Shown here: positions 8,583-48,110 of the stretch, piece after piece
Layout of the letters: every line of letters starts with the position of its first letter
Numbering within the stretch: the stretch's first letter is position 1
NCBI GenBank assembly: GCA_964626335.1
Contig: CAZVFN010000001.1
Span: 11,482-75,481, forward strand
DNA length: 64,000 nt
Direction of reading: 5' to 3'
Source: an uncultured Ectothiorhodospiraceae bacterium
GTDB lineage: Bacteria; Pseudomonadota; Gammaproteobacteria; XJ16; Halofilaceae
Notes under the pieces: generated by a model
What the model was told of the DNA's origin: nothing
The model's database searches: none
Seen by the model: the letters and a program-made list of their open reading frames with translations, nothing else
Position numbers and translations under genes: made by a program

Positions 8583-8785
8583 GGTGGGTTCCTTCTCCGG
8601 GGACTTCGCCGCAAGCTAAAGGGTCGGACCGGGTTCGAGCGTAGCGGCTCGCGGCGTTCTTTCCCAGTCCCCGGCGATCACATCGCGCCATGCGCGGTCG
8701 CCGATCGCCGGGTGATGCGGCCCGAACAAGGGGCCCGGCACTCCGCCGCCGCGCGGGTGTACCGGGTCGAGGGGGAACAATCGGC

Positions 8786-11218
8786 ATGGACCGTTACCCG
8801 GTTGCGATCGTGGGATCCGGCCCGGCCGGGCTGAGTGCAGCCTGCCGGGCCGCGGAGCGGGGCGTCGAGCACATCCTGCTCGAGGGTGCCGACCACTACG
8901 CCCACACGATCTACCGCTACCAGAAGGGCAAGCACGTGATGGCGGAGCCCAACGTGCTGCCGCTGCGCGCACCGATCCCGTTCGATGCCGGCCGGCGCGA
9001 GGAGATCCTCGAGGGCTGGGCATCCGGCGCCGGGGAGAAGGGCGCGAATACCCGCTTCAACGCCTCCGTCAAGGGCATCACGGGTGAGCGCGGCGACTTC
9101 CGCCTGACGCTCGCCGACGGCGCGGAGATCGCGGCCGAGCACGTCGTCCTGGCGATCGGCGTCCAGGGCAACCCGCGCACCCTGGGCCGCCCGGGCGAGG
9201 ACCTGCCCTTCGTCCAGTACCAGCTCGACGATCCCGGGGCCTACAGCGACGAGACGATCGTGGTCGTCGGCGCCGGCGATGCGGCGATCGAGAACGCGCT
9301 CGGCCTCGTCGAGCAGAACCGCGTGATCAGCGTCAATACGCGCGACGAGTTCACGCGCGCCAAGGACGCCAACAACCAGGCCATCCTGCAGGCGATCGAG
9401 AGTGAGTCGACGCCCATGGAGTGCTTCTACAACAGCACCGTGGACCGGGTCGATGCCCTCGAGGACGACAGCGGGTTCGCCGGCCAGATCACGCTCGACA
9501 CCGCCGAGGGCAAGGCCGAGATCAAGTGCCACCGGGTGATCGCCCGCATTGGCGCCATCCCTCCGCGCCGGTTCGTCGAGTCCTGCGGCGTCACGTTCCC
9601 CAACGACGACCCGAACTCCGTCCCGGAGGTCTCCAGCCAGTACGAGTCGAATGTCTCCGGGCTCTACATCATCGGCGCCCTCGCCGGCTATCCGCTGATC
9701 AAGCAGGCCATGAACCAGGGCTACGAGGTCGTCGAGTACATCCTCGGCCACGAAGTCGAGCCCGCCGACACGCCGCTGCTGCGCGACAAGTTCGCCGCCA
9801 TACCCGGTGGCGACGACGTCCCCGCGACGCTCGCACTGATCCAGGAGCGCGTGCCGATGCTCGCGCCGATCACGCAGCTGCAGCTGCGGGAGTTCCTGCT
9901 CGACAGCGACATCCACGCCCCCGCCGAGGGTGACACGATCTTCCGGTACAAGGACTACACCAACTCCATCTACTCGATCCTGCAGGGCGAGGTGCACGTC
10001 CACCCGGGCGATCCGAACGACCCGAAGACACCGCGCGCGGCGATCACTCTCACCCAGGGCCAGTTCTTCGGCGAGATGAGCCTGATCTCCGGGCGCCGGC
10101 GCTCGGCGACCGTGACCGCGGGCCGCGACTGCATCGTCATCGAGAGCTCGCGCCGGTCGCTGCTGACGCTGATGTACTCGGTCGAGGGCGTGCGCCGGGT
10201 GGTCGAGGAGTCCTTCCTGCTGCGCGCCATCCAGTCGCAGATCGCGCCCGGCTGCAGCGCCGAGGACCTGGGCGAGCTGGTGCGCACGGCGACGATCGAG
10301 AAGTACGCGGCCGGCGACGAGATCTTCCACGAGGGCGACGCCGGCGACTGCCTGCAGCTCATCCGCCGGGGCTCGGTGACGGTCTCGCGCCAGATCGGTG
10401 GGCGCGAGGTGGTGCTGGCGTACGTCCCGGCGGGCCAGTACGTCGGGGAGATGGCACTGGTCTCGGACGCGCCGCGTACGGCGACCGTGCGCGCCGCCGT
10501 CGCGACGGAGACGGTGCGCCTCGACGGCGACGCCTTCAAGCGCCTGCTCGAGGAGCACCCGGACGTGCGCAAGCGCGTCCAGCAGGTCTACAAGAACCGG
10601 CTGACCAGCGACATGGACCGCGGCCAGCAGCCCGAGGCCGGCGACATCATCTCGTTCCTGGTGGAGCAGGGCCTGGGCGAGGCCACCGACGTGCTGCTGA
10701 TCGACGAGTCGCTGTGCATCCGCTGCGATTACTGCGAGAGCGCCTGCGCCGATACCCACGGCGGTGTGTCGCGGCTCGACCGCGAGGCCGGCCCGACGTT
10801 CGCCCATGTGCACGTCCCGACCTCCTGCCGTCACTGCGAGCACCCGCACTGCATGAAGGACTGCCCGCCCGACGCGATCCACCGCAATCCCAACGGCGAG
10901 GTGTACATCGACGACACCTGCATCGGCTGTGGCAACTGCGAGAAGAACTGCCCCTACGGCGTGATCCAGATGGGCGTGGAGACCCGCCGCGAGCCCAGCC
11001 TGTGGGCGTGGCTGCTGACGGGGCTGGGCCCCGAGCCGGGCTCCGAGCTCAAGCCGAAGAAGAAGGAAAGCGACCAGAAGAAGGCGGTCAAGTGCGATAT
11101 GTGCAAGGATCTGCCGGGCGGCCCCGCCTGCGTGCGCGCCTGCCCGACCGGCGCGGCCCTGCGCATGAGCCCCGAGGCCTTCTTCGAGATGACGGAGAAC
11201 ACGTCGACGCGTGACTAG
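8786..11218 (+). CDS. Cytoplasmic fusion protein: FAD/NAD(P)-binding oxidoreductase, two cyclic-nucleotide-binding domains and a poly-ferredoxin (4Fe-4S) domain
   Basis: ORF 8690..11218. Start set at ATG 8786 (MDRYPVAIVGSGPAGLS), with GAGGGGGA upstream. Dinucleotide folds VAIVGSGPAG and IVVVGAGDAAIENA. cNMP cassettes FFGEMSLISGRRRSATV and YVGEMALVSDAPRTATV. Fe-S motifs CIRCDYCESAC, CRHCEHPHCMKDCP, CIGCGNCEKNCP, CDMCKD...CVRACP. Confidence 0.85.
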   Translation: MDRYPVAIVGSGPAGLSAACRAAERGVEHILLEGADHYAHTIYRYQKGKHVMAEPNVLPLRAPIPFDAGRREEILEGWASGAGEKGANTRFNASVKGITGERGDFRLTLADGAEIAAEHVVLAIGVQGNPRTLGRPGEDLPFVQYQLDDPGAYSDETIVVVGAGDAAIENALGLVEQNRVISVNTRDEFTRAKDANNQAILQAIESESTPMECFYNSTVDRVDALEDDSGFAGQITLDTAEGKAEIKCHRVIARIGAIPPRRFVESCGVTFPNDDPNSVPEVSSQYESNVSGLYIIGALAGYPLIKQAMNQGYEVVEYILGHEVEPADTPLLRDKFAAIPGGDDVPATLALIQERVPMLAPITQLQLREFLLDSDIHAPAEGDTIFRYKDYTNSIYSILQGEVHVHPGDPNDPKTPRAAITLTQGQFFGEMSLISGRRRSATVTAGRDCIVIESSRRSLLTLMYSVEGVRRVVEESFLLRAIQSQIAPGCSAEDLGELVRTATIEKYAAGDEIFHEGDAGDCLQLIRRGSVTVSRQIGGREVVLAYVPAGQYVGEMALVSDAPRTATVRAAVATETVRLDGDAFKRLLEEHPDVRKRVQQVYKNRLTSDMDRGQQPEAGDIISFLVEQGLGEATDVLLIDESLCIRCDYCESACADTHGGVSRLDREAGPTFAHVHVPTSCRHCEHPHCMKDCPPDAIHRNPNGEVYIDDTCIGCGNCEKNCPYGVIQMGVETRREPSLWAWLLTGLGPEPGSELKPKKKESDQKKAVKCDMCKDLPGGPACVRACPTGAALRMSPEAFFEMTENTSTRD

Positions 11219-11426: not shown

Positions 11427-12365
11427 ATGCACGCCTCGTTCCTGACCTACGAGCGCTTCCGCCACCTCAAGCTCGCCCTGGCGCTCGCGCTCGCGGCGAT
11501 CGTGGCCTATGCATGGCACGACCCGGTCGGCGAGCCCAACGGCGGCACCTGGCTCGGCTACACCCTGGGGGGACTCGGGGCGGCGCTGATCCTGCTGCTG
11601 CTGTGGTACGGCGTGCGCAAGCGCCGTTTCCGGTCGCGCATGGGCACCGTCCGCGGCTGGCTGTCGGCGCACGTCTACCTCGGGCTCGTGCTGGTGGTGA
11701 TCGCGACCCTGCACACCGGCTTCGAATTCGGCTGGAACATCCACACGCTCGCCTACGCGCTGATGATCGCGGTGATCGTCAGCGGCATCTACGGCGTCTA
11801 CGCCTACCGCCGCTATCCCAACCTGATGACGGGTAACCGCACCGGCGTCGGTCCCCAGGCGATGCTCGACGAGATCGGCTCGCTCGAGCAGCAGGCCGTC
11901 GAGCTCGCCGACAGCATCGACGACCCGACCCACCAGGTCGTACTGCGCTCGATCCGCAACAACACCATCGGCGGCGGCGTGCGCGACCAGCTGCGCGGCG
12001 GACGCCCGAAGCAGGCGCGCCAGGAGGAAGACCGCGCGGAGGAGTTCCTCGAACAGAAGAACAGGACGCTGGTCGCCGACCTGGAGAAGATCAAGGCGCA
12101 GGAAGCCGACCGCATCATGCGGGCCGAGTCGACCATGCAGTTCGTCGCCGGCCATCTGGCGGCGGCCGAGCCGGGCCAGCAGGTGGAGCGCATCCGCCGC
12201 CTCATGGATCTCCTGTCGCGGCGCCGCGCCCTGGTGCGCCGGCTCAACCAGGACATCCAGCACCGCGCGCTGCTCCAGATCTGGCTGTACCTGCACGTGC
12301 CGCTTTCGCTCGGGCTGCTGGCAGCCCTCGTGGCGCACGTCGTCGCCGTGTTCACCTACTGGTAG
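11427..12365 (+). CDS. Five-TM membrane protein with two H-x13-H helices (candidate di-haem b transmembrane electron carrier) and a long charged coiled-coil insert
   Basis: TM3 reads SAH-VYLGLVLVVIATL-H and the last TM reads LH-VPLSLGLLAALVA-H, each with exactly 13 residues between the histidines. About 150 aa of charged helical sequence separates TM4 from TM5. Weak SD. The stop is 6 nt before the next gene. Confidence 0.6.
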   Translation: MHASFLTYERFRHLKLALALALAAIVAYAWHDPVGEPNGGTWLGYTLGGLGAALILLLLWYGVRKRRFRSRMGTVRGWLSAHVYLGLVLVVIATLHTGFEFGWNIHTLAYALMIAVIVSGIYGVYAYRRYPNLMTGNRTGVGPQAMLDEIGSLEQQAVELADSIDDPTHQVVLRSIRNNTIGGGVRDQLRGGRPKQARQEEDRAEEFLEQKNRTLVADLEKIKAQEADRIMRAESTMQFVAGHLAAAEPGQQVERIRRLMDLLSRRRALVRRLNQDIQHRALLQIWLYLHVPLSLGLLAALVAHVVAVFTYW

Positions 12366-12371: not shown

Positions 12372-14132
12372 ATGCGCGTTCTCGTTCGCCACATTACGCG
12401 CAGGTCGCAGACCGGCCTCGGCCACACCGACAAGACGGTCGCGGGCGACAGCCTCACCATTGGTCGCGGCGCGGACGCGGATGTCTTCCTCTCCGACCTG
12501 CACGTCGCCCTGCACCACGCCGTGCTGCGGCGTGTGTCGAGCGGCAGGTTCAGCGTTCAGGCGCGCACGCCGAGTGGCATCAAGATCAATGGCCGCACGC
12601 TGCAGACCGGCATCGTGCGCGCCGGCGACCGCATCGGCGTCGGCCTCAGCACCCTGCGCCTCGAGCGCGGCGACCAGGAGCACGACGTCGTCCTCGAGGT
12701 CGACGAGGCGCGGACCCGTGGCGGCGAAAAGGCGGACTCCGGGCCGACGACGCTGCGCGCGGCCGGTCTCGGCCGCCGGCGCTGGGCCTGGGCCGCCTTC
12801 CTGGTGGTGCTGGCGATCGGCCTGGGCCTGCCGCTGGCCGAGATATTCGGCGAGCGCGATGGCCTCGCCCTCGACGGCGGCAGCGCCGACGCTGCGGCGC
12901 GCGACGGCGGCGGGATCACGCGACACGTCGACTGGCTGCTGGCGGGCAGCGACCGCATCTGGGAAACCGGGCCGATGAGCAAGCCCCACCGCTCCTTCGG
13001 CGCCGATTGCGGCCAGTGCCACCGGCAGCCGTTCCAGCGCGTGAGCGACGCTGCCTGCCTCGACTGCCACGAGAACCAGCCGCACCACGCCGACGACACC
13101 GGCCTGATGCGGAGCGCCGGGCTCTCCGCTCGGCGCTGCGCGAGCTGCCACGTCGAGCACAGCGGCACCGAGGCCCTGCGCGCCGCCGACGCCGACATCT
13201 GCTCCGACTGCCACTCGGCGCCCGAGAGCAACATGCCGGGCAGCGACCTGCAGGCGGTTTCCGGCTTCGCCGGCGACCGGCACCCGCAGTTCCGCGTGCG
13301 CCTGGTGTCGTTCAACGAGGGGGGCGAGCCCGCCTGGAAGCGCGTGCCCATGGACGGGCCCGTGAGCGAGCAAAGCGGGCTCGCATTCCCCCACGACGCC
13401 CATCTGGCCGCGGACGGCGTAGAGGGTCCACAGGGCAAGGAACAGCTCGCGTGCGGCGACTGCCATCGCCCCGGGCCGACGGGCGTGACGATGCAGCCGG
13501 TGCGTTTCGAGCGCGACTGCCAGCGCTGCCACCAGCTGAACTTCGAGCCCGAGGACCCGGACCGCCAGCTACCCCACGGCCGCCCCGGGCTGGTGGTGTC
13601 GATGCTCGAGGAGTACTACTCGCGGGTCGCGCTCGCGGGCGGCTTCGACCGCGCGGACGCCGAGGTCGACCCCCCGGACGTGGTCGAGCGCGAGCGCACC
13701 GCCTCGAGCGAGCTCGAGGAGGGCGGGCGGCGTGCCGCGCTCGCCTGGGCGCGGGAACAGGCCGGCGTGGTCGCCAGCGAGATGTTCGACTACCGCGCCT
13801 GCAGCACGTGCCACCAGGTCACGCGCACGCCCGATGACCCGGCCGGCTGGCGGGTGCACCCCGTGGCGCTGACGCAGCAGTGGTTCCCGCAGGCGGATTT
13901 CACGCACGCGCGCCACGAGCAGATGGCCTGCAACGACTGCCACGAGGCCGGCGGCTCCGAGGCGGCGAGCGACGTGCTGATGCCCGGGATCGCGACCTGC
14001 CAGGAATGCCACGGCGGTTCCGGGGCGAGCGACCGGATCGCTTCCGGCTGCGTCGATTGCCACGGCTTCCACACGGCGACCGATCTGCGGATGGGGGCGA
14101 ACGATGAGGGGATGGCCCATGCGCAGCGCTAG
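12372..14132 (+). CDS. FHA domain - single TM - periplasmic decahaem cytochrome c fusion
   Basis: N-terminal FHA-like sequence (LTIGRGADADVFLSDLHVALHHAVL...IKINGRTL...GDRIGVG). TM helix WAWAAFLVVLAIGLGLPLA. Ten CXXCH sites follow: CGQCH, CLDCH, CASCH, CSDCH, CGDCH, CQRCH, CSTCH, CNDCH, CQECH, CVDCH. Confidence 0.8.
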   Translation: MRVLVRHITRRSQTGLGHTDKTVAGDSLTIGRGADADVFLSDLHVALHHAVLRRVSSGRFSVQARTPSGIKINGRTLQTGIVRAGDRIGVGLSTLRLERGDQEHDVVLEVDEARTRGGEKADSGPTTLRAAGLGRRRWAWAAFLVVLAIGLGLPLAEIFGERDGLALDGGSADAAARDGGGITRHVDWLLAGSDRIWETGPMSKPHRSFGADCGQCHRQPFQRVSDAACLDCHENQPHHADDTGLMRSAGLSARRCASCHVEHSGTEALRAADADICSDCHSAPESNMPGSDLQAVSGFAGDRHPQFRVRLVSFNEGGEPAWKRVPMDGPVSEQSGLAFPHDAHLAADGVEGPQGKEQLACGDCHRPGPTGVTMQPVRFERDCQRCHQLNFEPEDPDRQLPHGRPGLVVSMLEEYYSRVALAGGFDRADAEVDPPDVVERERTASSELEEGGRRAALAWAREQAGVVASEMFDYRACSTCHQVTRTPDDPAGWRVHPVALTQQWFPQADFTHARHEQMACNDCHEAGGSEAASDVLMPGIATCQECHGGSGASDRIASGCVDCHGFHTATDLRMGANDEGMAHAQR

Positions 14133-16182
14133 CCGGCTACTGCTCGCGACTGCCTGCCTGGCCGGCCTGCTCGCCGCCTGCGGCGGCGGCTCGCGCAGCG
14201 GCGGCTCCGATGCCGGCTCGAGCCAGGACACCGACTGCACCGGCTTTTGCCAGGACGCCGCGACCCGGCTCACGGCGAGCGATGTGCGCACCGTGATCGC
14301 CCAGGCGGCCGCAGAGGCGGACGCCCGCGGCGAGCCCGCGACCATCGCCGTCGTCGATCGCGTCGGCAACGTCCTGGGCCTGTTCCGCATGAACGGGGCC
14401 GACGCCAGCGTCGAGATCACGTCCACGCCCGGCCAGAGCGACGGCGTCGACGGGGGCCTGGAGGGCGTCAACATCATCCCCGACACGCTGGCGGCGATCG
14501 CCAAGGCCGTGACCGGGGCCTACCTCTCGTCCGAGGGCCATGCGTTCACCACCCGCACGGCGAGCCAGATCGTGCAGGCCCACTTCAACCCGGGCGAGGA
14601 CTTCCAGCCCGGGGGCCCGCTGTTCGGCGTGCAGTTCAGCCAGCTGCCCTGCTCGGACCTGGCGACCCGCTTCGACGGCGCCGACCCGATCAATGCCGGT
14701 CCCCACCGCTCGCCGCTGGGCCTGTCCGCCGACGCGGGCGGCCTGCCGCTGTACAAGAACGGCACCCCCGTCGGCGGGATCGGCGTGATCGCCGACGACG
14801 TCTACGGCCTGTCGCCGAAGGAGCTGGGCGGCGACCAGCCAACGAGCGTCGACGAGCTCGCGGCGGTCGCCGGCAGTGCCGGCTTCGCCGCGCCCGCCGC
14901 CCGGCGCGGCAACCGCATCACGGTCGAGGGCAAGCTGCTGCGCTTCGCGGCGGCGCAGCCGGGCGACCTGCGAACGGAGGCGTCGAACGCCCCCGCCTTC
15001 GCCAGCCTGGCCGGCACGACCGCGGCGGTGCCCGGCTACACCGATGGCACGATCCGCGGCGGCACGGCCTTCTCCAAGCCGGAATCGGGCATCCGCGCGA
15101 GTACCCACGCGGCCTTCAGCGGCCAGGACGCATTCGTGCTCGTTGACGATGCCGACAACCCGCGGTTCCCGCCCACGGCGGGCAGCGCCCCCGGCGGCGG
15201 CAACGCGCTCACGCAGAACGAGGTGGAGACGCTCCTCTCGGAGGCCCTCGCGGTCGCCAACCGGAGCCGTGCGCAGATCCGCCGCCCGCTCGGCAGCCGG
15301 GCCCGCGTCACGGTTTCCGTGGTCGACACCGACGGCAATGTCCTCGGCATCGTGCGCGGCCGCGACGCGCCCGTGTTCGGCATCGACGTCTCGCTGCAGA
15401 AGGCCCGGACGGCCGCGTTCTTCTCCGGCAGCGACGCGGCCACCGAGCTGCGGGCCGTGCCCGACGCCGAGTATCTCGACGGCGGCCTGTCGAGCCTGCG
15501 CAACGAGCCGATCAGCCATTACATCGACGGCGACCCGGGCGACGAGCGCCAGACGGGCGTGCGCGCCTTCCTCGGCGAGCCCAGCGCCCTCACCGGCGGT
15601 GTTGCCTTCGCCGACCGCTCCGGCGGCAACCTGTCGCGGCCGTTCTTCCCCGACGGCATCGACGGCAACCGCCACGGGCCCTTCAGCAAGCCGGGCGGCA
15701 TCGAGCCGCCCACGGAGTGGAGCCCGTTCTCCGTGGGCCTGCAGCTCGACCTGGTCTACAACGCCCTGATCCGCCACGTCGGCTTCATCGCCGGAGTGGC
15801 CGGCAGCGACGTGCCGATGAACTGCACGGGCATCCGCGGCCTGACCAACTCCGGTGGTGCCGGCCCCCTGACCCAGGCCGACACGATCGACACGGTGCGC
15901 AACGGCATCCAGATCTTCCCCGGCAGCGTGCCGATCTACCGCGGCAGCACGCTGGTCGGCGGCATCGGCGTCTCCGGCGACGGCATCGAACAGGACGACC
16001 TGATCGCGTTCCTGGGGCTGCACAACGCGGGCGAGAAGCTGGGCACGATCGACAATGCGCCGACGGCGATTCGGGCCGACAAGCTGAGTCCGGTCGACTT
16101 CGGCGTGAATTTGCGCTACGTGCAGTGCCCGCAGAAACCGTTCCTCGACAGCGATGAGCAGACCGTCTGTGAAGGCAAGTAA
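14119..16182 (+). CDS. Lipoprotein with two GlcG/HbpS-like (DUF336, haem-binding-type) domains
   Basis: ORF 14104..16182. Preferred start is ATG 14119 (MRSASRLLLATACLAGLLAAC, lipobox LAAC). DUF336-like segments ATIAVVDRVGNVLGLFRM, VTVSVVDTDGNVLGIVRGRDAPVFGIDVSLQKARTAAFF and PIYRGSTLVGGIGVSGDGIEQDDLIA. The start overlaps the upstream stop. Confidence 0.6.
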   Translation: MRSASRLLLATACLAGLLAACGGGSRSGGSDAGSSQDTDCTGFCQDAATRLTASDVRTVIAQAAAEADARGEPATIAVVDRVGNVLGLFRMNGADASVEITSTPGQSDGVDGGLEGVNIIPDTLAAIAKAVTGAYLSSEGHAFTTRTASQIVQAHFNPGEDFQPGGPLFGVQFSQLPCSDLATRFDGADPINAGPHRSPLGLSADAGGLPLYKNGTPVGGIGVIADDVYGLSPKELGGDQPTSVDELAAVAGSAGFAAPAARRGNRITVEGKLLRFAAAQPGDLRTEASNAPAFASLAGTTAAVPGYTDGTIRGGTAFSKPESGIRASTHAAFSGQDAFVLVDDADNPRFPPTAGSAPGGGNALTQNEVETLLSEALAVANRSRAQIRRPLGSRARVTVSVVDTDGNVLGIVRGRDAPVFGIDVSLQKARTAAFFSGSDAATELRAVPDAEYLDGGLSSLRNEPISHYIDGDPGDERQTGVRAFLGEPSALTGGVAFADRSGGNLSRPFFPDGIDGNRHGPFSKPGGIEPPTEWSPFSVGLQLDLVYNALIRHVGFIAGVAGSDVPMNCTGIRGLTNSGGAGPLTQADTIDTVRNGIQIFPGSVPIYRGSTLVGGIGVSGDGIEQDDLIAFLGLHNAGEKLGTIDNAPTAIRADKLSPVDFGVNLRYVQCPQKPFLDSDEQTVCEGK

Positions 16183-18034
16183 GCGCACAGTCATCGGCCT
16201 TGGCCTCGCCGCCGTCGTCCTCGCGCCGTTCGCCGCGGCCGCGGACGACGTCCGGCGCCGCCCGGGCAGCGACCGCGACCGGGTCATCGAGCGCGAGATC
16301 CCGGGCGAGCGCGACCGCGAGCGCCCGGGCAGCGATCGCCCCCGGGAGCGCGACAAGGTCGAGCAATCCCCCGATCGAGCGCAGCAGCCGCGCGAGCAGC
16401 CCGACCCCAACAGGGCCGCCGGGATCGGGCGCGTCGAGCCGGCTTCGGCGCCGGACGAGCCCGGGCGCTTGACCCTGCCCGTGCCCGATCGGTGGCGTAT
16501 CGTCAATTCGCTCGGGCTGATCGATCAGCGCTGGTGGGACCCCTACGATCAGAACACGTACAAGGCGGACAAGCCGATCCACGACGACTGGTTCCTCAAC
16601 GTCGACTTCACCTCGGACACCGTCGTCGAGCCCAGGCAGTTCCCCGTCCCCGTCTCCCCGCAGGGCACGGCACGCAGCAACGAGCTCGACCTGGTCGGCA
16701 ACGGCGAGCAGATGGTCTACGCCCAGACCTTCATCGCCGGTCTCGTCTACTACAAGGGCAACACCGTATTCAAGCCGCCCGACTGGGAATACCGGCTGAC
16801 GCTGGCCGGCCAGTACAACCACGTCGAGTCCGAGCAGGCGCGCCTGCTGCGGGCGGACCCGGACCGCGGTACCGACCGCTCCGACCAGCACCTCGGCGTC
16901 CAGGAGCTGTTCGTCGACAAGCACCTCAGAGATGTCTCGCCGCGCTATGACTTCGACTCGGTGCGCTTCGGCATCCAGCCGTTCAACGCCGATTTCCGCG
17001 GCTTCCTGTTCCAGGACGAGCCCTTCGGGGTACGCCTGTTCGGCACGCGCGACAACAACATCTTCCAGTACAACCTGGCCTGGTTCCGCCGCATCGAGAA
17101 GGACACCAACAGCGGCCTCAACGACCTCGCCGAGGGCCTGCGCGACGACGACGTCTTCGTCGCCAACCTGTTCTGGCAGGACTTCCCCGTGCTCGGCTTC
17201 GACAGCCAGGCCACGATCCTGCACAACCGCAATGAGGAAGGCGACGAGAGCGCGCACTTCAACCAGAACAACTTCATCGAGCGCCCGGCCTCCATCGGCC
17301 TGGAGAAGCCGCGCAACTACGACGTGACGTATGTCGGCCTCTCGGGCGACGGCCACTTCGGACGCACGAACTTCACCGGATCGGTGTATTACGCCCATGG
17401 CGAGCAGGACCGCGGCGTCTTCGTCGAGGAGCCCACCGACATCCGCGCCGGCTTCGCCGCCGGCGAGCTCTCCTGGGACTTCGACTGGACGCGCCTGCGC
17501 GTCTCCGGCCTCTATGCCAGCGGCGACGACGACCCGTTCGACGACGTCTCCAACGGCTTCGACGCCGTGTTCGAGAACCCGCTGTTCGCGGGCGCCGACA
17601 CCAGCTTCTGGATCCGCCAGCCCGTGCCGCTGATCGGCGGCGGTCGGGTCGCGCTGTCCGGCCGCAACGGGATACTCAACTCGCTGCGCAGCTCCAAGGA
17701 GGAAGGCCAGTCCAACTTCGACAATCCGGGCACCGTCCTGCTCGGCATCGGCACCGACCACGACGTCACGCCGCAGCTGCGTGTCTCGACCAACGTCAAC
17801 CAGCTGTGGTTCGACACGACCGAGACCGTGGAGGTCGCGCGCCAGCAGACGAACGTCGATGACGAGATCGGCACCGACATATCGGTCTCGGCAATCTACC
17901 GGCCGCTGTTCACGCAGAACATCGTCTTCCGCGGGTCGGCCGCCGTTCTCGAGCCGGGTGATGGCTACGAGCAACTGTTTGGCACCGACGACGAGGCCTA
18001 CTCCGTGCTCTTCAACCTGGTGTTGCGGTACTGA
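16154..18034 (+). CDS. Outer-membrane beta-barrel protein (porin-like) with an N-terminal Arg/Asp/Glu/Pro-rich repeat
   Basis: Signal peptide KRTVIGLGLAAVVLAPFAAAA. Repeat RPGSDRDR...RPGSDRPRERD. Long run of alternating beta-strand-like sequence. The C-terminus, ...VLFNLVLRY, ends in an aromatic residue. Overlaps the upstream gene by 29 nt and the downstream gene by 1 nt. Confidence 0.65.
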   Translation: MSRPSVKASKRTVIGLGLAAVVLAPFAAAADDVRRRPGSDRDRVIEREIPGERDRERPGSDRPRERDKVEQSPDRAQQPREQPDPNRAAGIGRVEPASAPDEPGRLTLPVPDRWRIVNSLGLIDQRWWDPYDQNTYKADKPIHDDWFLNVDFTSDTVVEPRQFPVPVSPQGTARSNELDLVGNGEQMVYAQTFIAGLVYYKGNTVFKPPDWEYRLTLAGQYNHVESEQARLLRADPDRGTDRSDQHLGVQELFVDKHLRDVSPRYDFDSVRFGIQPFNADFRGFLFQDEPFGVRLFGTRDNNIFQYNLAWFRRIEKDTNSGLNDLAEGLRDDDVFVANLFWQDFPVLGFDSQATILHNRNEEGDESAHFNQNNFIERPASIGLEKPRNYDVTYVGLSGDGHFGRTNFTGSVYYAHGEQDRGVFVEEPTDIRAGFAAGELSWDFDWTRLRVSGLYASGDDDPFDDVSNGFDAVFENPLFAGADTSFWIRQPVPLIGGGRVALSGRNGILNSLRSSKEEGQSNFDNPGTVLLGIGTDHDVTPQLRVSTNVNQLWFDTTETVEVARQQTNVDDEIGTDISVSAIYRPLFTQNIVFRGSAAVLEPGDGYEQLFGTDDEAYSVLFNLVLRY

Positions 18035-21000
18035 TGACAGCGCAAGCGAACCGAAACACGCCGATGAGCGAACCCGTCGCCCCCGGGCGCACGCCGAATC
18101 GCGCCCGGGCGTGGCTCCACGCCGGTGCCCTCGTGCTCGCGGCGACGCTGGCCTGGGGACCCGGCGACCGCGCGCAGGCGGCCTCCGCGCTCGGCGAGCC
18201 GCAGGACGTCGATTACGACCCCGCCCCGCCCGCGCCGAAGAACCAGCTGCCGGGCCAGGCCGAGGACAAGAGCGACGGCTGCCAGTCGTGCCACACCGAG
18301 ACCGACCAGAAGGACATGCACGACAACCCGGCGGTCGTTCTCGGCTGTACCGACTGCCACGGCGGCGATCACGACGTCATGCGCCCGGCCGACAGCGAAC
18401 AGGGCGATCCCGCCTACCAGAACGCGATGAAGGAAGCGCACGTCAAGCCGCTGTACCCGGGGGCGTGGAATTGGCCGAACAGCGCGACGCCGAAACGCAC
18501 GTACACGCTGCTGAACGAGGAATCGCCGGAATTCGTCCGCTTCGTGAACCCGGGCGACTACCGCGTCGCGGAGAAGGCGTGCGGCAACTGCCACGGCGAC
18601 ATCGTCGCCGCCGCCCAGCGCAGCCTGATGGCGACCTCGGCGATGTTCTGGGGCGGGGCGGCGTACAACAACGGCATCCTGCCCAACAAGCGCTACATCC
18701 TGGGCGAGGCCTACACCGACGAGGGCAAGCCCGCCAGGATCGAGAACCCGGTCGAGGTCACGGAGCCGATGAAGCGCGCCGGTGTCCGCCCCGAGCTGTG
18801 GCCCCTGCCCGCCTGGGAGACCGTGCCGCCGGCCGACGTCTTCCGCGTGTTCGAGCGTGGCGGGCGCAACAAGGAGAACCTGTTCCCCGAGACCGGCCTG
18901 CCGAACCCCGAATTCGACATCCAGGTGCTCGAGGAGCCGGGCCGCCCGGACATCCGCCAGTCGAACCGGGGCCCGGGCACCGGGCAGCGGATCGCCGTGC
19001 CGGTGCTCAACATGACCAAGACGCGGCTGAACGACCCGACCATGTGGTTCATGGGCACCAACGACAACCCGGGCGACTTCCGCTCCTCGGGCTGCTCGTC
19101 GTGCCACGTCGTCTACGCCAACGACCGCAAGGAAAAGTCCGCCGGCCAGTACGCCGAGCACGGCCACTGGGGCAAGAGCATCACCGCGGACCCGACCATC
19201 CCGAAGGATGAGAAGGGCCACCCCCTCGAACACAAGTTCACCGAGCAGATCCCGACCAGCCAGTGCATGATCTGCCACATGCACCAGCCGAATTCGTTCG
19301 TGAACTCGTTCCTCGGCTACACCATGTGGGACTACGAGTCCGATGCACCGCGCATGTGGCCCGAGGAGCAGCAATACCCGAGCTCCGAGGAGCAGCGCCG
19401 GATCAACGCCCGCAACCCCGAGGGCGCGGCCGTGCGCGGCAAGTGGGGCGACGTCGACTTCCTCTCCGGCGTATCGGAGCTGAACGACCAAATGGAGCAC
19501 ACGCAGTTCGCCGACTACCACGGCCACGGCTGGAACTTCCGCGCCGTGTTCAAGAAAGACCGCGAGGGCAAGCTGCTCGACGCGAAGGGCGACGTGGTGT
19601 CCCACGACGACCCGGAGAAGTTCGACAAGGCCGTGCACATGTCGTCGATCCACGCCGACAAGGGCATGCACTGCGTCGACTGCCACTACAGCCAGGACAC
19701 GCACGGCAACGGCCACATCTACGGTGAGGTCGCGCAGGCCATCGAGATCGAGTGCTCCGACTGCCACGGCACTGCCGAGCGCTACCCGGACCTGCTGACC
19801 AGCGGCCCGGCCGCGCCGCCGGGCGGGCGCGACATGTCGACGATGCGCACGCCCGACGGTCGCCAGCGCTTCGTCTGGCGTAACGGCGACCTGTACCAGC
19901 GCTCGCAAATGGACCCCGAAAAGGAGTGGCAGGTCAGCCTGGTCAAGGACACGGTGACGCAGGGCAGCGGCAGCTACAACGAGCGCGCCGCACGCTCCAA
20001 GCTGATGTCGTCGGACGAGCACAAGCAGGACTGGGGCCGAGACGTGGCGAAGGAGAACCGCGCGCACAAGGAATCGGAGATGATGTGCACCACCTGCCAC
20101 ACGTCCTGGACGACGAGCTGCGCGGGCTGCCATCTGCCGATCGAGGCGAACTGGAAGACCAAGCGCCATCACTACGAAGGCGGGGCCACGCGCAACTTCG
20201 CCACCTACAACCCCCAGGTGGTGCGCGACCAGATGTTCCAGCTGGGCCTGCACGGGCCCGCCAAGGGCAACCGCGTCGCACCGGTGCGCTCGTCCTCTGC
20301 GCTGGTGCTGTCGTCGCGCGACGCCGAGCGCGGGCTGATCTACACCCAGCAGCCGCCGATCTCGTCGGCCGGTTTCTCGTCGCAGGCGTTCGCGCCTCAC
20401 TTCGCGCACACCGTGCGCAAGACCGAGACGAAGTCGTGCGAGGACTGCCATCTCTCCGAGGAAGGCGACAACAACGCGATCATGTCGCAGTTGTTGCTCC
20501 AGGGGACCGATTTCGTCGATTTCGTCGGCTACAACGCCTGGGTCGGCGAGGCCGGCGGCCTGTCCGCCGTGCGCGTCAGCGAGTGGGAGGAGCCGCAGGC
20601 CGTGATCGGCAGCTACCTCCACGAGTACGCCTACCCCGACTGGTATGCGCAGCACAACAAGCGCGATCGCCAGCTGGACCAGGCCTATGACCACGGTGCC
20701 GGCGGCGAGGTCGGCTGCCTGCAACTGCGCGGCGAGTATGTCTACGCCGCCGAAGGGCCCGGGGGCTTCCAGGTCTACGACGCACAGGCGATCGGCAACA
20801 AGAACTTCTCGCAGCGCCTGATCACGCAGCCGTTCTCGCCGCTGGGCCACGACACCCAGGTCGACACGAGGAACGCGACCTGCGTCGCCCTGCCGACCAC
20901 CCAGCCGATCCACCCGGACCGCAATCAGGGCGAGCTGATGCGCGAGACCAACATGGAGCAGCCGTTCCACCCGGTCTACGACTACGCGGGCATCACCGAC

Positions 21001-21855
21001 AGCGAGGAGGGGCTGATCCTCGTCGACGTCAACACGCTCGCCGACGGCGAGCCGCGCAACAACTTCCTCGAGCGCGCGGTGACGTTCAACCCGAACGGCG
21101 TGCTCGACGGTGCGCGCGACATCACGTTCGGTGGGCACTTTGCCTACGTGGCCACCGATGACGAGCTCGTGGTGGTCGACCTGGATCAGCCCGGGCAGCC
21201 GCGGATCGCCGAGCGCATCCGCCTGCAGGATCCGCGTGCGAGTTTCGTCCAGTTCCGCTACCTGTTCGTCACCGATGCCACGGGTCTGCGGGTGATCGAC
21301 ATCACCCATCCGCAGGAGGCCGAGCTGGTTGCGGGCGCACGGGTCGAGCTGGCCGATGCGCAGGGCCTGCACGTGGCACGCACCTACGCCTACATCGCCA
21401 ACGGCGGGCAGGGTCTCGCGATCGTCGACGTGACGCGGCCGGAGGCGCCGGAGCTCTTCCAGCGCTTCGACGGCGGCGGGCGGATCGGCGACGCCCGCGA
21501 CGTCGTCGCCGGGGCCAGCTACGCCTCGGTGTTCGCCTACGTCGCGGACGGGCGCAACGGCCTGCAGGTCGTGCAGCTCACCTCGCCGGAGCGCACGCCC
21601 GGTTTCTACGGCTACAGTCCGCCGCCCGACCCGAAGTGGATCGCCGGTTACCCGACCGAGCGGCCGGCGCTGGCGCTGTCCGAGCCGCTGGAGCGCGACC
21701 GGGCAGTCGACGAGACCGGCCACCAGATCGCCGTGTTCGGGCGCATCGGCTCGCGACCGTTTGACTGGGAAGAGATGAAGCAGCTCTACCTCGACGACCA
21801 GGGCAAACCCTGGTACGTCAGCGATCCCCCGGGGGCCACCGCGGCCGGCAACTAG
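18034..21855 (+). CDS. Large secreted decahaem cytochrome c fused to a C-terminal LVIVD-repeat beta-propeller
   Basis: Signal-like ARAWLHAGALVLAATLAWGPGDRAQAAS. Ten CXXCH sites are spread over about 850 aa: CQSCH, CTDCH, CGNCH, CSSCH, CMICH, CVDCH, CSDCH, CTTCH, CAGCH, CEDCH. LVIVD-type repeats follow: GLILVDV, ELVVVDL, GLRVIDI, GLAIVDV, GLQVVQL. The ATG overlaps the upstream TGA. Confidence 0.8.
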   Translation: MTAQANRNTPMSEPVAPGRTPNRARAWLHAGALVLAATLAWGPGDRAQAASALGEPQDVDYDPAPPAPKNQLPGQAEDKSDGCQSCHTETDQKDMHDNPAVVLGCTDCHGGDHDVMRPADSEQGDPAYQNAMKEAHVKPLYPGAWNWPNSATPKRTYTLLNEESPEFVRFVNPGDYRVAEKACGNCHGDIVAAAQRSLMATSAMFWGGAAYNNGILPNKRYILGEAYTDEGKPARIENPVEVTEPMKRAGVRPELWPLPAWETVPPADVFRVFERGGRNKENLFPETGLPNPEFDIQVLEEPGRPDIRQSNRGPGTGQRIAVPVLNMTKTRLNDPTMWFMGTNDNPGDFRSSGCSSCHVVYANDRKEKSAGQYAEHGHWGKSITADPTIPKDEKGHPLEHKFTEQIPTSQCMICHMHQPNSFVNSFLGYTMWDYESDAPRMWPEEQQYPSSEEQRRINARNPEGAAVRGKWGDVDFLSGVSELNDQMEHTQFADYHGHGWNFRAVFKKDREGKLLDAKGDVVSHDDPEKFDKAVHMSSIHADKGMHCVDCHYSQDTHGNGHIYGEVAQAIEIECSDCHGTAERYPDLLTSGPAAPPGGRDMSTMRTPDGRQRFVWRNGDLYQRSQMDPEKEWQVSLVKDTVTQGSGSYNERAARSKLMSSDEHKQDWGRDVAKENRAHKESEMMCTTCHTSWTTSCAGCHLPIEANWKTKRHHYEGGATRNFATYNPQVVRDQMFQLGLHGPAKGNRVAPVRSSSALVLSSRDAERGLIYTQQPPISSAGFSSQAFAPHFAHTVRKTETKSCEDCHLSEEGDNNAIMSQLLLQGTDFVDFVGYNAWVGEAGGLSAVRVSEWEEPQAVIGSYLHEYAYPDWYAQHNKRDRQLDQAYDHGAGGEVGCLQLRGEYVYAAEGPGGFQVYDAQAIGNKNFSQRLITQPFSPLGHDTQVDTRNATCVALPTTQPIHPDRNQGELMRETNMEQPFHPVYDYAGITDSEEGLILVDVNTLADGEPRNNFLERAVTFNPNGVLDGARDITFGGHFAYVATDDELVVVDLDQPGQPRIAERIRLQDPRASFVQFRYLFVTDATGLRVIDITHPQEAELVAGARVELADAQGLHVARTYAYIANGGQGLAIVDVTRPEAPELFQRFDGGGRIGDARDVVAGASYASVFAYVADGRNGLQVVQLTSPERTPGFYGYSPPPDPKWIAGYPTERPALALSEPLERDRAVDETGHQIAVFGRIGSRPFDWEEMKQLYLDDQGKPWYVSDPPGATAAGN

Positions 21856-22017
21856 TGTCCTTTAACGGAAGTTCGCCGAGGTTTCTCGGCGAGGCATCGT
21901 GGTGGCTGGCACGGCGCGCCGACGAGCCATGGCGCATCCCATGGTGAGGAGGCGCAACGCCGCCAGGCGCCGCGAGGCCCGGCGAAAAGCCGGTGAACTC
22001 TCGTTAAAGGACACTAG
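21852..22017. mobile_element. MITE-like element A (~160 bp) with terminal inverted repeats TGTCCTTTAACG, flanked on both sides by CTAG
   Basis: Left end CTAGTGTCCTTTAACGGAAGTTC. Right end GAACTCTCGTTAAAGGACACTAG. That is 16 of 16 matching positions including CTAG, with further imperfect matches inward. No internal ORF. The left CTAG contains the TAG stop of the 18034 gene. Confidence 0.6.
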
Positions 22018-22146
22018 GCGCCTGTCCGAGAGATTCGCGCCGTCGCGAGCGCGTGGGACCAGCGAGCAGGTTTTGGCGATCGTGAAACGAGCATGGTGGT
22101 TCCCATGTGCGTCGAGCGCTCGCCGAAAGATGCTGCTGGGGCACGC
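22012..22146 (+). mobile_element. Diverged, right-end-degraded copy of MITE-like element B (paralogue of 39501..39677)
   Basis: By eye it aligns with 39505..39636 at roughly four-fifths identity (CTAGGCGCCTGTCCG...GCCGTCGCGAGCGCGTGG...GATCGTGAAACGAGCATGG...GTCGAGCGCTC...GATGCTGCTGGGGCACG). Element A sits exactly at its left CTAG. Confidence 0.5.
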
Positions 22147-22385
22147 GCGCACCGAGGCCACGGCTTCTGGGAGCGGCGCCCGGGCAAGCCCTGGTCCATG
22201 CCCTGTCGCCCGGTTTCGCCTGCCGAGCACCCGTGCCAGGCGCGCGGCCGGCGCCGGATCGCCCAATACGGGCAAGCCGCACAACGCCGCGAGTCGACCG
22301 GGCACGCGCACGGCTCGACAGTCCCTCCAACGACTGGCGTGCCCGCGCGCTTGGCCGCGACGTGCGTGTGCTATCCTGCCGCGCC

Positions 22386-23063: not shown

Positions 23064-23065
23064 CC

Positions 23066-27998: not shown

Positions 27999-28000
27999 GG

Positions 28001-44195: not shown

Positions 44196-44215
44196 AACCA
44201 GCCCCCCAGGCGGCC

Positions 44216-48031: not shown

Positions 48032-48110
48032 ATTTGCTCCGCGTAAGCGCCGACAGCGATGACCGCCGGTGGTAGGTTTCAATCCCCATGCGCGACGCGA
48101 CGGAAGAAAG

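Follow-up and report, generated by a model that had tools for sequence, protein, structure and literature searches.

A 64,000-nt stretch of DNA from an uncultured Ectothiorhodospiraceae bacterium (the whole of which is referred to here as the window) contains a long reading frame, g6, for which an original prediction proposed a decahaem cytochrome with enzyme-like haem spacing, fused to an LVIVD beta-propeller and possibly inserted into or docked on the outer-membrane barrel encoded just upstream. The question raised by this locus is what such a protein might do in the cell envelope, and with which partners. We find that g6 is the best-conserved part of an uncharacterised seven-gene redox cluster, the components of which are listed in Table 1.

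Table 1. Coordinates of the cluster genes, the parts of g6 and other features of the window
Feature	Coordinates	Strand	Basis
Cytochrome c554-like pentahaem, signal peptide	7218..8582	-	Pfam PF13435; motifs, conserved ligands
g1, cytoplasmic FAD/NAD(P)H oxidoreductase (thioredoxin-reductase-like)	8690..11218	+	Pfam, NCBIfam, PDB hits; Cys motifs
g2, 5-TM membrane protein, predicted dihaem b-type cytochrome	11427..12365	+	weak PF01292; TM segments; His pairs
g3, cytoplasmic FHA, one TM helix (aa 137-161), periplasmic decahaem	12372..14132	+	Pfam FHA, c3/c7; ten CXXCH
g4, lipoprotein, three HbpS-like/DUF336 domains, lipobox LAAC/G	14104..16182	+	Pfam PF03928, E 1.7e-24, three stretches
g5, outer-membrane AlgE-like beta-barrel, 18 strands, 626 aa	16154..18034	+	AF2, DSSP, Foldseek
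g6, decahaem c-type cytochrome and LVIVD beta-propeller, 1273 aa	18034..21855	+	ORF and translation
g6, predicted Sec type I signal peptide, aa 1-49 (...RAQA/A), no lipobox	18034..18180	+	read from sequence
g6, cytochrome domain, aa 74-833, all ten haem sites	18253..20532	+	CXXCH motifs, conservation, generic c3/c7 hits
g6, LVIVD beta-propeller, about aa 834-1220	20533..21693	+	Pfam LVIVD; repeat motifs; DSSP and pLDDT; Foldseek
g6, conserved C-terminal tail, motif RDRAVDETGxQIAVFGRxGSRPF	21694..21852	+	invariant columns R1148-P1169 (A1 numbering); pLDDT 80-92
Hairpin, nearly perfect, 39-nt arms, 98 nt between	21847..22022	+	dG -121.9 kcal/mol, z = -12.5
Canonical MtrCAB porin-cytochrome conduit (Shewanella type)	42036-48187
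MtrA, 325 aa, DmsE-family decahaem	44216-45193	-	291 bits vs cutoff 192

A decahaem cytochrome joined to a beta-propeller

The g6 frame is open over its whole length, with a GC3 of 0.93, as in the neighbouring genes, and its product is a genuine decahaem c-type cytochrome joined to an LVIVD beta-propeller, the predicted fusion being upheld by ten conserved CXXCH motifs and a confident propeller in one chain. As also predicted, its ATG overlaps the stop codon of the barrel gene g5: the junction reads ...TAC TGA TG ACA..., and the A at 18034 is common to both codons, with M11 at 18064 as a possible alternative start. The cleavage site of the predicted signal peptide was judged by eye, with no predictor; all g6 homologues have an AxA-type signal peptide followed by a conserved mature N-terminus. 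The homologue search yielded >8000 matches, the best 120 of them full-length and 61-81% identical.

The ten motifs, at aa 83, 105, 183, 354, 411, 547, 574, 685, 696 and 802, take up 20 of the 22 cysteines (20,000 shuffles of g6 gave on average 0.0125 motifs and never more than 2), and all ten are present in 96 of 97 aligned homologues, with the motif cysteines and histidines invariant or nearly so. The predicted number of sites stands, while their spread has to be corrected from about 850 aa to 724 aa (83-806). Mean column conservation of the cytochrome domain is 0.70, with 198 invariant columns; its peaks lie outside the haem motifs, among them the segments DYHGHGWNFR, CHMHQPN and RQSNRGPGTG. 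No atypical haem motif (CXXCK, CXnCH) occurs in g6, and its 11 invariant non-motif histidines suffice in number for ten bis-His haems, so that nothing points positively to an open catalytic haem.

The case for enzyme-like spacing had been built on a comparison with the densely packed MtrA, which is indeed encoded in the same window, and it does not hold: MtrC, a surface wire cytochrome of that window, has 61 aa per haem versus 72 in g6, and spacing is non-discriminating. Pfam returned only generic c3/c7 haem-pair matches to the cytochrome domain, and HMM and PDB sequence searches assigned g6 neither to NrfA, HAO, Otr, MccA or MtrC nor to any characterised soluble periplasmic enzyme family.

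The C-terminal part matched the Pfam LVIVD model with 66.9 bits on whole g6 and 76.6 bits on the last 407 aa (cutoff 20.2). To the five repeats recognised originally a sixth, degenerate one can be added (GFQVYD, aa 911), the others being located at aa 993, 1044, 1084, 1127 and 1176. In the AF2 model the propeller has pLDDT mostly above 90 and four-strand blades by DSSP, comprising six clear canonical blades and probably a seventh, closing one, and Foldseek retrieved 7-8-blade propellers at E about 1e-6, with propeller hits taking up all of the top 50 matches. It contains an invariant Cys895/Cys950 pair, and no invariant His, Cys or Met cluster of the kind expected at a metal or cofactor site. 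The pTM of 0.83 (mean pLDDT 77) suggests a fixed arrangement of the cytochrome and propeller parts in a model that is devoid of haems, was built from a shallow alignment (Neff about 2), and is least confident in the most conserved stretches (r = -0.35).

The conserved cluster and its outer-membrane barrel

The cluster consists of g1, g2, g3, a pentahaem cytochrome gene, g4, g5 and g6. At least 599 species representatives, most of them Proteobacteria, have it; we found no published characterisation of it. The order g2-g3-g4-g5-g6 is kept across 82 loci of Alpha-, Beta- and Gammaproteobacteria, with no conservation of the flanking genes. The pentahaem gene, its seventh member, is present in 58 of the 82 loci, accounts for a 45-locus cluster in the neighbourhood survey, and in other genomes usually lies just downstream of g6; g1 is found upstream of g2 or, in Betaproteobacteria, after the pentahaem gene, and g4 is missing from a few variant loci. 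In the same loci g6 is 60-81% identical, while the values for g5, g4, g2 and g3 are about 55%, 50%, 40% and 33%, respectively. Being the most conserved, g6 displays the pattern expected of a functional core rather than a passive wire.

The tight pairing with a barrel gene, which had been deduced from a single overlap, extends to every locus having an upstream flank: g5 adjoins g6 in 80 of 82 loci, the remaining two contigs begin at g6, and in 61 of 68 loci the distance between the g5 stop and the first possible g6 start is -4 to +20 nt. The g5 protein has a signal peptide and a disordered, charged N-terminal extension. Its AF2 model (pLDDT 88.7) has 18 strands by DSSP, AlgE is its best Foldseek match (E 1e-17), and it also resembles Occ-type substrate channels; it has no Pfam match, including Alginate_exp. 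An MtrB/PioB identity was rejected, as g5 did not match that model and is 18-stranded and AlgE-like. In the MtrAB structure the MtrB/PioB-type barrel sheathes MtrA, and an 18-strand barrel cannot house a cytochrome. Insertion of g6 into the barrel is therefore unlikely: g5 is too small to sheath a decahaem, making docking or a substrate channel likelier, and docking of g6 on the barrel is plausible. For the same reason electrons would have no obvious route across the outer membrane, and the periplasm may be where the system ends.

The other members supply a potential electron path. Besides its oxidoreductase part, g1 contains a pair of cNMP-binding domains and a ferredoxin domain, HycB/DmsB-like, with four [4Fe-4S] clusters; it has no export signal. 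The sole family match of g2 is a weak one to cytochrome b561, and its His pairs H82/H96 (TM3) and H290/H304 (TM5), each 14 residues apart and 98-100% conserved in 59 orthologues, form on two TM helices the classic pattern of a predicted dihaem b cytochrome. Ten invariant extra (distal) histidines make g3 look like a wire-type cytochrome; a DmsE/MtrA identity was rejected for it (21.9 bits vs a cutoff of 192). The pentahaem cytochrome has four CXXCH motifs and one CX4CH, and it too looks like a wire, since in both proteins the invariant His/Met residues suffice to make every haem six-coordinate. The lipoprotein g4 has four conserved cysteines and no conserved histidine, and its PDB relatives are EfgA/GlcG and HbpS-like proteins. 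The hairpin that begins at the g6 stop codon belongs to no Rfam family and is absent from 83 related loci; it is possibly an operon-end structure or a MITE-like insert.

Probable role in the cell envelope

We favour, with a probability of about 0.5, the interpretation that the seven genes form a self-contained, regulated module for electron transfer across the envelope, with g6 as its terminal unit close to the outer membrane; the module looks made for carrying NAD(P)H electrons from the cell interior to the outer membrane. Electrons from cytoplasmic NAD(P)H would enter the FAD of g1 and its four [4Fe-4S] clusters, with the two cNMP-binding domains perhaps gating entry, and would traverse the inner membrane via the two b haems of g2. 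They would then pass to the decahaem wire of g3, inner-membrane-anchored and coupled to a cytoplasmic FHA domain, and through the c554-like pentahaem to g6, made together with the g5 barrel and usually the HbpS-like lipoprotein g4. The cytochrome core of g6 would be rigidly joined to its roughly seven-bladed propeller, acting as a docking or substrate-binding module, and g5 would more likely be a docking platform and/or a channel, bringing substrate to g6 or taking product away. We infer the outward direction of flow from thermodynamic reasoning alone; complex formation, any substrate and the siting of g6 at the outer membrane's periplasmic face are likewise putative. One distant family member has an additional 18-haem N-terminal extension, which fits electron entry at the N-terminus, and the lipobox-like N-termini of two distant members fit membrane attachment.

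It is possible, if doubtful, that g6 is instead a soluble multihaem enzyme of the periplasm, acting as terminal reductase or oxidase on a small and probably anionic solute, with the propeller forming or capping the active site, much as in cytochrome cd1 or hydrazine synthase, g4 serving as an accessory or binding protein, and g5 as an outer-membrane channel specific for the substrate, a role that has been proposed for ExtI with selenite. Although no catalytic multihaem family matches g6, its conservation is very high and enzyme-like, peaking in the three non-motif segments named above. The type I signal peptide without a lipobox, the similarity of g5 to AlgE and Occ-type channels, and the porin in the operon of ExtM, the sole detectable relative of g6, would all suit such an enzyme, as would the only hint from domain fusion, a C-terminal OmpA-like domain on the homologue from one Solimonas MAG (a singleton), which points to the periplasm. 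However, the histidine count, the standard haem motifs and the lack of a ligand cluster in the propeller argue otherwise, and a freely diffusing enzyme would hardly seem to need a supply chain of 25 c haems that includes a membrane-anchored decahaem.

Location on the cell surface, with g6 as an MtrC-like terminal cytochrome on the outer face of g5 delivering electrons to minerals, metals or O2 and the propeller as an adhesion or substrate-binding domain, appears unlikely, since an 18-strand barrel could not house a cytochrome linking periplasm to surface and the cluster encodes no secretion system. Propellers of the LVIVD and "choice-of-anchor B" types are characteristic of cell-surface proteins, g5 has a highly conserved 71-aa loop (L7, strands 13-14) that is extracellular by strand topology, and the haem density and the lipoprotein-like distant members recall MtrC; a weak likeness to MtrC domain II/IV in Pfam (E 1.4e-3) becomes stronger in distant members, but g6 lies outside the OmcA/MtrC family. 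Its 60-81% identity across proteobacterial classes would be unusually high for a surface-exposed protein, and the genome already has a canonical MtrCAB.

Electron uptake, in which g6 would oxidise an external or periplasmic low-potential donor and g3, g2 and g1 would reduce NAD(P)+, is improbable. In principle g2 and the multihaem components could run either way, and lithotrophy is indicated for the window and for some host taxa: NiFe hydrogenase genes adjoin in the window, and Spectribacter hydrogenoxidans has the cluster. A related inner-membrane module has been discussed in an Fe(II) oxidiser. Most hosts, however, are aerobic heterotrophs, and to reach the NAD(P)+ couple electrons would have to move against the membrane potential, from the positive side to the negative one, which only very low-potential donors would allow.

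Comparison with known systems

The trans-envelope module that we favour shares with MtrCAB a similar haem density in g6 and MtrC and a likely role in bringing electrons to the outer layer of the envelope. It differs in several respects: g5 is not of the MtrB/PioB type; g6 has a propeller and, unlike MtrC, is no lipoprotein; the start of the chain is apparently an NAD(P)H flavoprotein in the cytoplasm with a dihaem b protein, rather than the quinol-oxidising CymA; and cNMP and FHA regulatory domains are found within g1-g3. With AlgE/AlgK it has in common an 18-strand barrel and a lipoprotein gene immediately upstream, but there are no polysaccharide synthesis genes, and g4 is HbpS-like, not a TPR protein like AlgK.

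In eukaryotic NOX/FRE enzymes and in bacterial Fre-MsrQ-MsrP, electrons pass from cytoplasmic flavin/NAD(P)H via two bis-His b haems to a far-side acceptor. The His pattern of g2 suggests the same logic, although g2 is not a ferric-reductase-domain protein and the acceptor would be the 25-c-haem chain. Cytochrome cd1 nitrite reductase and hydrazine synthase likewise combine haem c module(s) and a propeller as one unit; the likeness is only at fold level and confined to the propeller. The cd1 structures (E about 3e-6) rank no better than WD40 proteins among the Foldseek matches, the g6 propeller lacks d1-type or other obvious cofactor ligands, and g6 carries ten haems where those enzymes have one or two.

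Among curated families only ExtM (GSU2935), from the extHIJKLMNOPQS cluster of Geobacter sulfurreducens, gave a significant match to g6 (67 bits, E 8e-19), collinear over haems 1-2, 6-7 and 8-10; with the family cutoff at 800 bits it is a distant, sub-threshold relative. Each cluster includes Fe-S proteins besides a porin and a b-type cytochrome, but ExtM, which has no established function (PMC5877670), has 12 haems in about 600 aa and no propeller. As a precedent for the favoured reading, propeller proteins are co-encoded with outer-membrane multihaem cytochromes of extracellular electron transfer in Desulfovibrio ferrophilus (DFE_0448-0451, 0461-0465; PMC5815863) and Tenderiales (uet; 10.1101/2022.05.06.490989), where they are proposed to be an interaction or stabilising module; those are separate NHL-type polypeptides, whereas in g6 the propeller is of the LVIVD type and forms one chain with the decahaem, and the hosts are mostly aerobic Proteobacteria.

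A parallel to g3-g2-g1, with homology judged by architecture only, is the three-gene "NHC" module of Ferrigenium straubiae, which was presented independently as novel and has no known function; it encodes an FHA-TM-nonahaem cytochrome together with a 5-TM and a [4Fe-4S] protein (10.64898/2026.01.22.701106). Its described neighbourhood differs in having no barrel, lipoprotein or decahaem-propeller genes, with nirK located upstream and an SHP-like gene downstream (10.64898/2026.01.22.701106).

The g6 cytochrome–propeller fusion and its family

The reading frame of g6, the protein under study, is open over 1273 aa, and its third-position GC (0.93) is the same as that of the adjoining genes. The translated sequence has ten CXXCH motifs (aa 83, 105, 183, 354, 411, 547, 574, 685, 696 and 802), compared with a mean of 0.0125 in shuffled g6 sequence, and these accommodate 20 of its 22 cysteines; the other two, C895 and C950, are invariant and lie within the propeller. 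All ten haem motifs are kept in 96 of the 97 aligned family members, in which 260 of 1200 positions are invariant. The N-terminus is a type-I signal peptide (...AQA/A) without a lipobox, and the 39 homologue N-termini that were inspected carry the same AxA-type signal, again with no lipobox in any of them; M11 is a possible alternative start. The g6 ATG was indeed found to overlap the stop codon of the upstream barrel gene g5, as predicted, the two sharing one base (TGATG). With conserved CXXCH motifs, an export signal and the haem maturation genes ccmA, ccmB and ccmC in the window, g6 has the generic make-up of a multihaem c-type cytochrome.

The C-terminal part matches the LVIVD family PF08309 at 66.9 bits for the whole protein and 76.6 bits for aa 867-1273, with a gathering cutoff of 20.2. 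The five LVIVD-type repeats of the original prediction were borne out, and a sixth, degenerate one was added at aa 911. In an AF2 model of aa 74-1273, built from the 97-sequence alignment (mean pLDDT 77, pTM 0.83), the C-terminal domain forms a confident propeller, with pLDDT mostly >90 and runs of four-strand blades. The blade count (6+1) was taken from the DSSP string of the model: there are six canonical four-strand LVIVD blades and a probable seventh, closing blade, which the strands flanking the six could build. The best 50 PDB matches of the model in Foldseek are all propellers of a generic 7-8-blade type (E ~1e-6), including WD40 proteins, cd1 nitrite reductase, BamB, BtuG and an uncharacterised Desulfotomaculum protein. 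The ten conserved haem motifs, the PF08309 match and the modelled propeller together uphold the assignment of g6 as a decahaem–LVIVD propeller fusion.

The cytochrome half is rich in helix and coil and is modelled with lower confidence than the propeller, as is expected for a cytochrome domain modelled without haems. Conservation and AF2 confidence are anticorrelated (r = -0.35): the most conserved stretches (aa 264-363, 404-443, 494-503 with the sequence DYHGHGWNFR, and 694-733) have pLDDT values of 30-60, and probably wrap haems or bind partners. Within the first of them, aa 265-363 (NLFPETGLP...RQSNRGPGTG...KTRLNDP...GDFRSSGCSSCH) are rich in Gly, Pro, Arg and Asn and show block conservation of 0.64-0.91, yet have the lowest AF2 confidence (pLDDT 30-57); the segment may wrap haems, contribute to an active site or bind a partner.

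A search of 5.8 billion proteins with g6 yielded at least 8000 candidates (protein clusters at 90% identity), the best 120 of which are full-length matches with 93-100% coverage and 61-81% identity, named only "hypothetical" or "LVIVD repeat-containing". An exhaustive search of 50%-identity representatives gave 2823 matches at E<=1e-3, of which 598 also reach E<=1e-30. At one genome per species, at least 599 species carry a relative, the closest among the matches listed being that of a Halofilum MAG (81%). Carriers are found in Nevskiales, Halieaceae, Steroidobacteraceae, Lysobacterales, Burkholderiales, Limnobacter, Methylococcales, Rhodospirillaceae and a few non-proteobacterial MAGs, and include the cultured Kineobactrum salinum, Limnobacter alexandrii, Spectribacter hydrogenoxidans, S. 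acetivorans and Fontimonas. Of seven distant representatives that were scanned, with 41-50% identity and lengths of 1171-1702 aa, six have LVIVD repeats, and the decahaem–propeller fusion is therefore old and conserved. Architectural variants occur among distant relatives from the representative search (P0255, P0256 and P0260), and haem site 3 is CX4CH in three distant members (P0245, P0256 and P0260). In a Solimonas MAG, the homologue P0073 (locus L083, 6001-10143) has an OmpA-like peptidoglycan-binding domain at its C-terminus, after a Pro/Ala-rich linker, which would put g6 in the periplasm, a weak pointer from a singleton. A targeted search for a second g6-OmpA fusion found none, and we dropped domain fusions as a means of locating g6, P0073 being the single case.

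The seven-gene cluster and its outer-membrane barrel

When the proteins of the window were compared by tblastn with 82 loci, the gene order g2-g3-g4-g5-g6 was constant across them, with g1 placed upstream of this block or, in Betaproteobacteria, after the gene for the cytochrome c554-like pentahaem protein. The latter usually lies just downstream of g6, and is divergent in the window. Neighbourhood clustering recovered only these seven genes as recurrent, besides which 13 of the 82 loci have a gene for a PP2C phosphatase and about 7 have one for an FHA protein; the flanks are otherwise unrelated. The g5 and g6 genes adjoin in 80 of the 82 loci, the remaining two ending at contig edges, and the distance from the g5 stop to the earliest possible start of g6 is between -4 and +20 nt in 61 of 68 loci. 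Among the cluster proteins, identity to those of the window, taken over the same loci, is highest for g6 (60-81%), followed by g5 and g1 (about 55%), g4 (about 50%), g2 (about 40%) and g3 (about 33%). Four variant loci from Methylobacter, Nevskia and Steroidobacteraceae MAGs (L049, L053, L065 and L076) are without g4; identity drops to 37-50% for their barrels, which have diverged much further, but stays near 62% for g6.

Positions of the cluster genes and of other features in the window
Feature	Positions	Strand	Description
Pentahaem	7218-8582	-	cytochrome c554-like
g1	8690-11218		thioredoxin-reductase-like FAD/NAD(P)H part, two cNMP-binding domains, HycB/DmsB-like four-cluster ferredoxin; predicted cytoplasmic
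g2	11427-12365		five TM helices; TM3 and TM5 each with an invariant pair of His spaced by 14 residues
g3	12372-14132		predicted cytoplasmic FHA domain, one TM helix, periplasmic decahaem part with ten invariant distal His
g4			predicted lipoprotein; three HbpS/DUF336 domains, no conserved His
g5	16154-18034		predicted outer-membrane barrel
g6	18034-21855	+	decahaem cytochrome–LVIVD propeller, 1273 aa
g6 aa 265-363	18826-19122		conserved segment of low AF2 confidence
Hairpin	21847-22022		starts at g6 stop codon
ccmA, ccmB	22107-23734		haem maturation
NiFe hydrogenase large subunit	24269-26008	-	hydrogenase operon
Fe-S/CCG protein	26005-27342	-	hydrogenase operon
Membrane protein	27339-27998	-	hydrogenase operon
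NiFe hydrogenase small subunit	28001-29191	-	hydrogenase operon
HupH and HycI-type maturation genes	within 24269-30097	-	hydrogenase operon
MtrB	42036-44195	-	457 bits, above NCBIfam cutoff
MtrA	44216-45193	-	above NCBIfam cutoff
MtrC/OmcA	45302-48187	-	437 bits, above NCBIfam cutoff
PdsA-like dihaem	48069-48752	+	adjoins MtrCAB
NapC/NirT CymA-like tetrahaem	48865-49476	+	adjoins MtrCAB
ccmC	49590-50417	+	haem maturation

In g1, the two cNMP-binding domains are inserted between the FAD/NAD(P)H and four-[4Fe-4S] modules, which is unusual for a redox enzyme; its translation probably begins later than annotated, M33, immediately ahead of the GSGPAG motif, looking like the true start. With g2 oriented by the positive-inside rule, its His pairs lie at equivalent depths in the membrane, the classic arrangement for two b haems. 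From its sequence, g2 looks to belong to a family of transmembrane dihaem-b electron carriers that has gone unrecognised. Its annotation is weak (cytochrome b561, E 5e-5), and it has a charged loop of about 150 aa that is predicted to be cytoplasmic. We rejected g3 as MtrA, since it scores 21.9 bits where 192 are needed; the real MtrA, which the original prediction had placed in the window, was located within a canonical MtrCAB cluster. In some genomes PP2C phosphatase and FHA-only genes flank the cluster, as in L001 (15009-17273), and together with the FHA domain of g3 they hint at Ser/Thr phosphorylation control of the electron-transfer chain. No Fur box or sigma-70 promoter was seen upstream of the operon.

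The AF2 model of g5 (pLDDT 88.7) has 18 strands, and its best Foldseek matches are to AlgE (E 1e-17, TM 0.55 by query and 0.69 by target), followed by Occ/OprD-type channels; judging by the model, g5 is predicted to be an AlgE-like 18-strand outer-membrane barrel. It had no Pfam match even at E<=1, including Alginate_exp (PF13372), and among 120 listed homologues one has PF13372 and another is named "Alginate export domain-containing" in UniRef. A role as an MtrB/PioB-type sheath was rejected, as g5 does not match TIGR03509, the model that detects the window's own MtrB, and has too few strands. MtrB needs about 26 to enclose MtrA, and the AlgE pore is narrow; insertion of the decahaem protein into g5, which had been suggested from the gene overlap, is therefore unlikely. 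The loop between strands 13 and 14 of g5 is 71 aa long and highly conserved; it is predicted to be extracellular by strand topology, and could fold into the lumen.

Proposed electron path and its alternatives

We propose that electrons would pass from NAD(P)H to the FAD and four [4Fe-4S] clusters of g1, then to the two b haems of g2 across the inner membrane, to the anchored decahaem of g3 and the pentahaem cytochrome, and finally to g6 at an outer-membrane assembly of g5 and, usually, g4. We favour outward flow because electrons leaving NAD(P)H in that direction would run downhill, with assistance from the membrane potential. The 25-c-haem chain and the invariant pairing of g5 with g6 argue for an end reaction at the outer membrane, and the small size of the g5 barrel argues for a channel or docking site instead of a sheath; the g6 propeller is likely to be a docking or substrate-binding module. 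Additional support for this polarity comes from distant g6 members, one of which has 28 CXXCH motifs in all owing to an 18-haem N-terminal extension, and two of which have a lipobox-like N-terminus.

It is also conceivable, if improbable, that g6 is a soluble periplasmic enzyme served by a dedicated porin, which would be consistent with its lipobox-free signal peptide and with the channel-type matches of g5. The "enzyme-like" haem spacing of the original prediction did not hold as a marker of catalysis, because MtrC, the surface cytochrome of the same window, is equally sparse (61 aa per haem, compared with 72 in g6 and 26 in MtrA). The ten haem sites are all plain CXXCH, and the sequence alignment contains 11 invariant and 6 near-invariant His outside the motifs, which could supply bis-His ligation for ten haems; the sequence of g6 therefore gives no positive sign of an open catalytic haem. 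Its separation from characterised soluble enzyme families withstood Pfam, NCBIfam and PDB sequence searches. With permissive E-values, neither the whole protein nor any of five fragments proved a member of NrfA, HAO, Otr, MccA or MtrC in Pfam and NCBIfam, the cytochrome part giving only generic c3/c7 motifs and sub-threshold ExtM matches; PF02335 (NrfA) reached 9.3 bits (E 0.64, cutoff 24.1) on one fragment, and the octahaem Otr model (TIGR04315) did not match. By sequence, g6 had no significant match among all PDB chains (NrfA, E 0.68), and the profile of its alignment found nothing with E <2.5 among all PDB sequences.

The one significant curated match is the equivalog ExtM (NF040943; 67.4 bits, E 8e-19, cutoff 800), collinear with g6 in three parts that cover haems 1-2, 6-7 and 8-10. 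By these profile matches ExtM appears to be a distant relative of g6, which is itself not a member of NF040943. In the Geobacter ext cluster ExtM is encoded as GSU2935, a 12-haem protein with no established function (PMC5877670).

A second alternative, that g6 is a surface-exposed terminal cytochrome resembling MtrC, would share the sparse haem spacing, and we consider it rather less probable than a periplasmic enzyme. Membership of g6 in the OmcA/MtrC family was rejected: TIGR03507 (cutoff 209 bits), which readily detects the window's MtrC, had no match to g6 at E<=0.01, and the lipobox is missing. The Pfam MtrC domain II/IV reached 18.6 bits against a cutoff of 30, and hhalign of the family alignment with the window's MtrC gave a probability of 5.9%; the family profile aligned over 11 columns with MtrC and 34 with g3, matches that span no more than one or two haem motifs. 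Inward electron uptake through the same carriers is the least probable of the three, given that it would run opposite to the direction that is downhill from NAD(P)H.

Within the favoured outward scheme, a bolder and still tentative proposal, to which we would give about one chance in four, is that Proteobacteria, most of them aerobic, use the cluster to export electrons under the control of signals, in a system that has so far escaped recognition and would be the two-membrane counterpart of NOX/FRE. Here, cAMP or cGMP acting on g1 and phospho-threonine acting via the FHA domain of g3 would switch on a flow of electrons from NAD(P)H; these would cross the inner membrane through the dihaem b, skip the quinone pool and continue over 25 c haems. 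The decahaem–propeller protein would then act at an AlgE-like channel of the outer membrane, as a terminal oxidoreductase of a novel type, possibly serving reductive metal acquisition or extracellular superoxide production.

Comparison with known conduits and other features of the window

Most of what is known of multihaem conduits across the envelope comes from iron oxidisers and from metal-reducing anaerobes; to our knowledge, every well-studied example takes its electrons from the quinone pool and has a large barrel of the MtrB or Pcc type. In contrast, the g6 module appears to be fed by cytoplasmic NAD(P)H through a dihaem b, has built-in cNMP and FHA regulatory domains, and terminates in a decahaem–propeller protein beside a small AlgE-like barrel, and it is carried mainly by aerobic members of the Alpha-, Beta- and Gammaproteobacteria (Halieaceae, Nevskiales, Steroidobacteraceae, Limnobacter and methanotrophs). 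We rate g6 as the marker of a widespread, strongly conserved and uncharacterised seven-gene redox module, a variant on the theme of the trans-envelope multihaem conduit. If the proposal is true, it would reveal, in bacteria that abound in the sea and in soil, a new route of regulated electron export or of redox chemistry in the periplasm, and provide a function for thousands of "hypothetical" or "LVIVD repeat-containing" proteins. The cultured carriers, such as Kineobactrum salinum, Limnobacter alexandrii and Spectribacter spp., make the question directly testable.

Full-text literature searches found no paper characterising the g6 family or its cluster. A preprint on Ferrigenium straubiae describes FHA-TM-nonahaem, 5-TM and [4Fe-4S] proteins as novel and of unknown function, and states that FHA-multihaem fusions had not been reported before (10.64898/2026.01.22.701106); it covers the inner-membrane module only, which from its description matches g3-g2-g1 by architecture alone. 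Separate NHL-type propeller proteins occur beside outer-membrane cytochromes in D. ferrophilus (PMC5815863) and Tenderiales (10.1101/2022.05.06.490989). The Methylobacter "PCC" paper was rejected as an account of the g6 cluster, the cluster described there being of the MtoAB type.

The canonical MtrCAB cluster (42036-48187) shows that the organism has a standard Mtr conduit besides the g6 cluster, and the window also contains a NiFe hydrogenase operon. The ccmA and ccmB genes lie just 3′ of the g6 cluster, with ccmC 26 kb away; no ORF in the ccmA/ccmB stretch passed the coding filter of GC3 >0.80. A nearly perfect hairpin of roughly 175 nt begins at the g6 stop codon, with imperfect inverted arms of 39 nt that include perfect 16-nt cores (CTAGTGTCCTTTAACG) and are separated by 98 nt. 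It matches no Rfam family, and further copies of the core were found neither in the window nor in 83 related loci. Its folding energy is -121.9 kcal/mol (z = -12.5 against shuffles), and it may represent an insert resembling a MITE or else a structure that marks the end of the operon.
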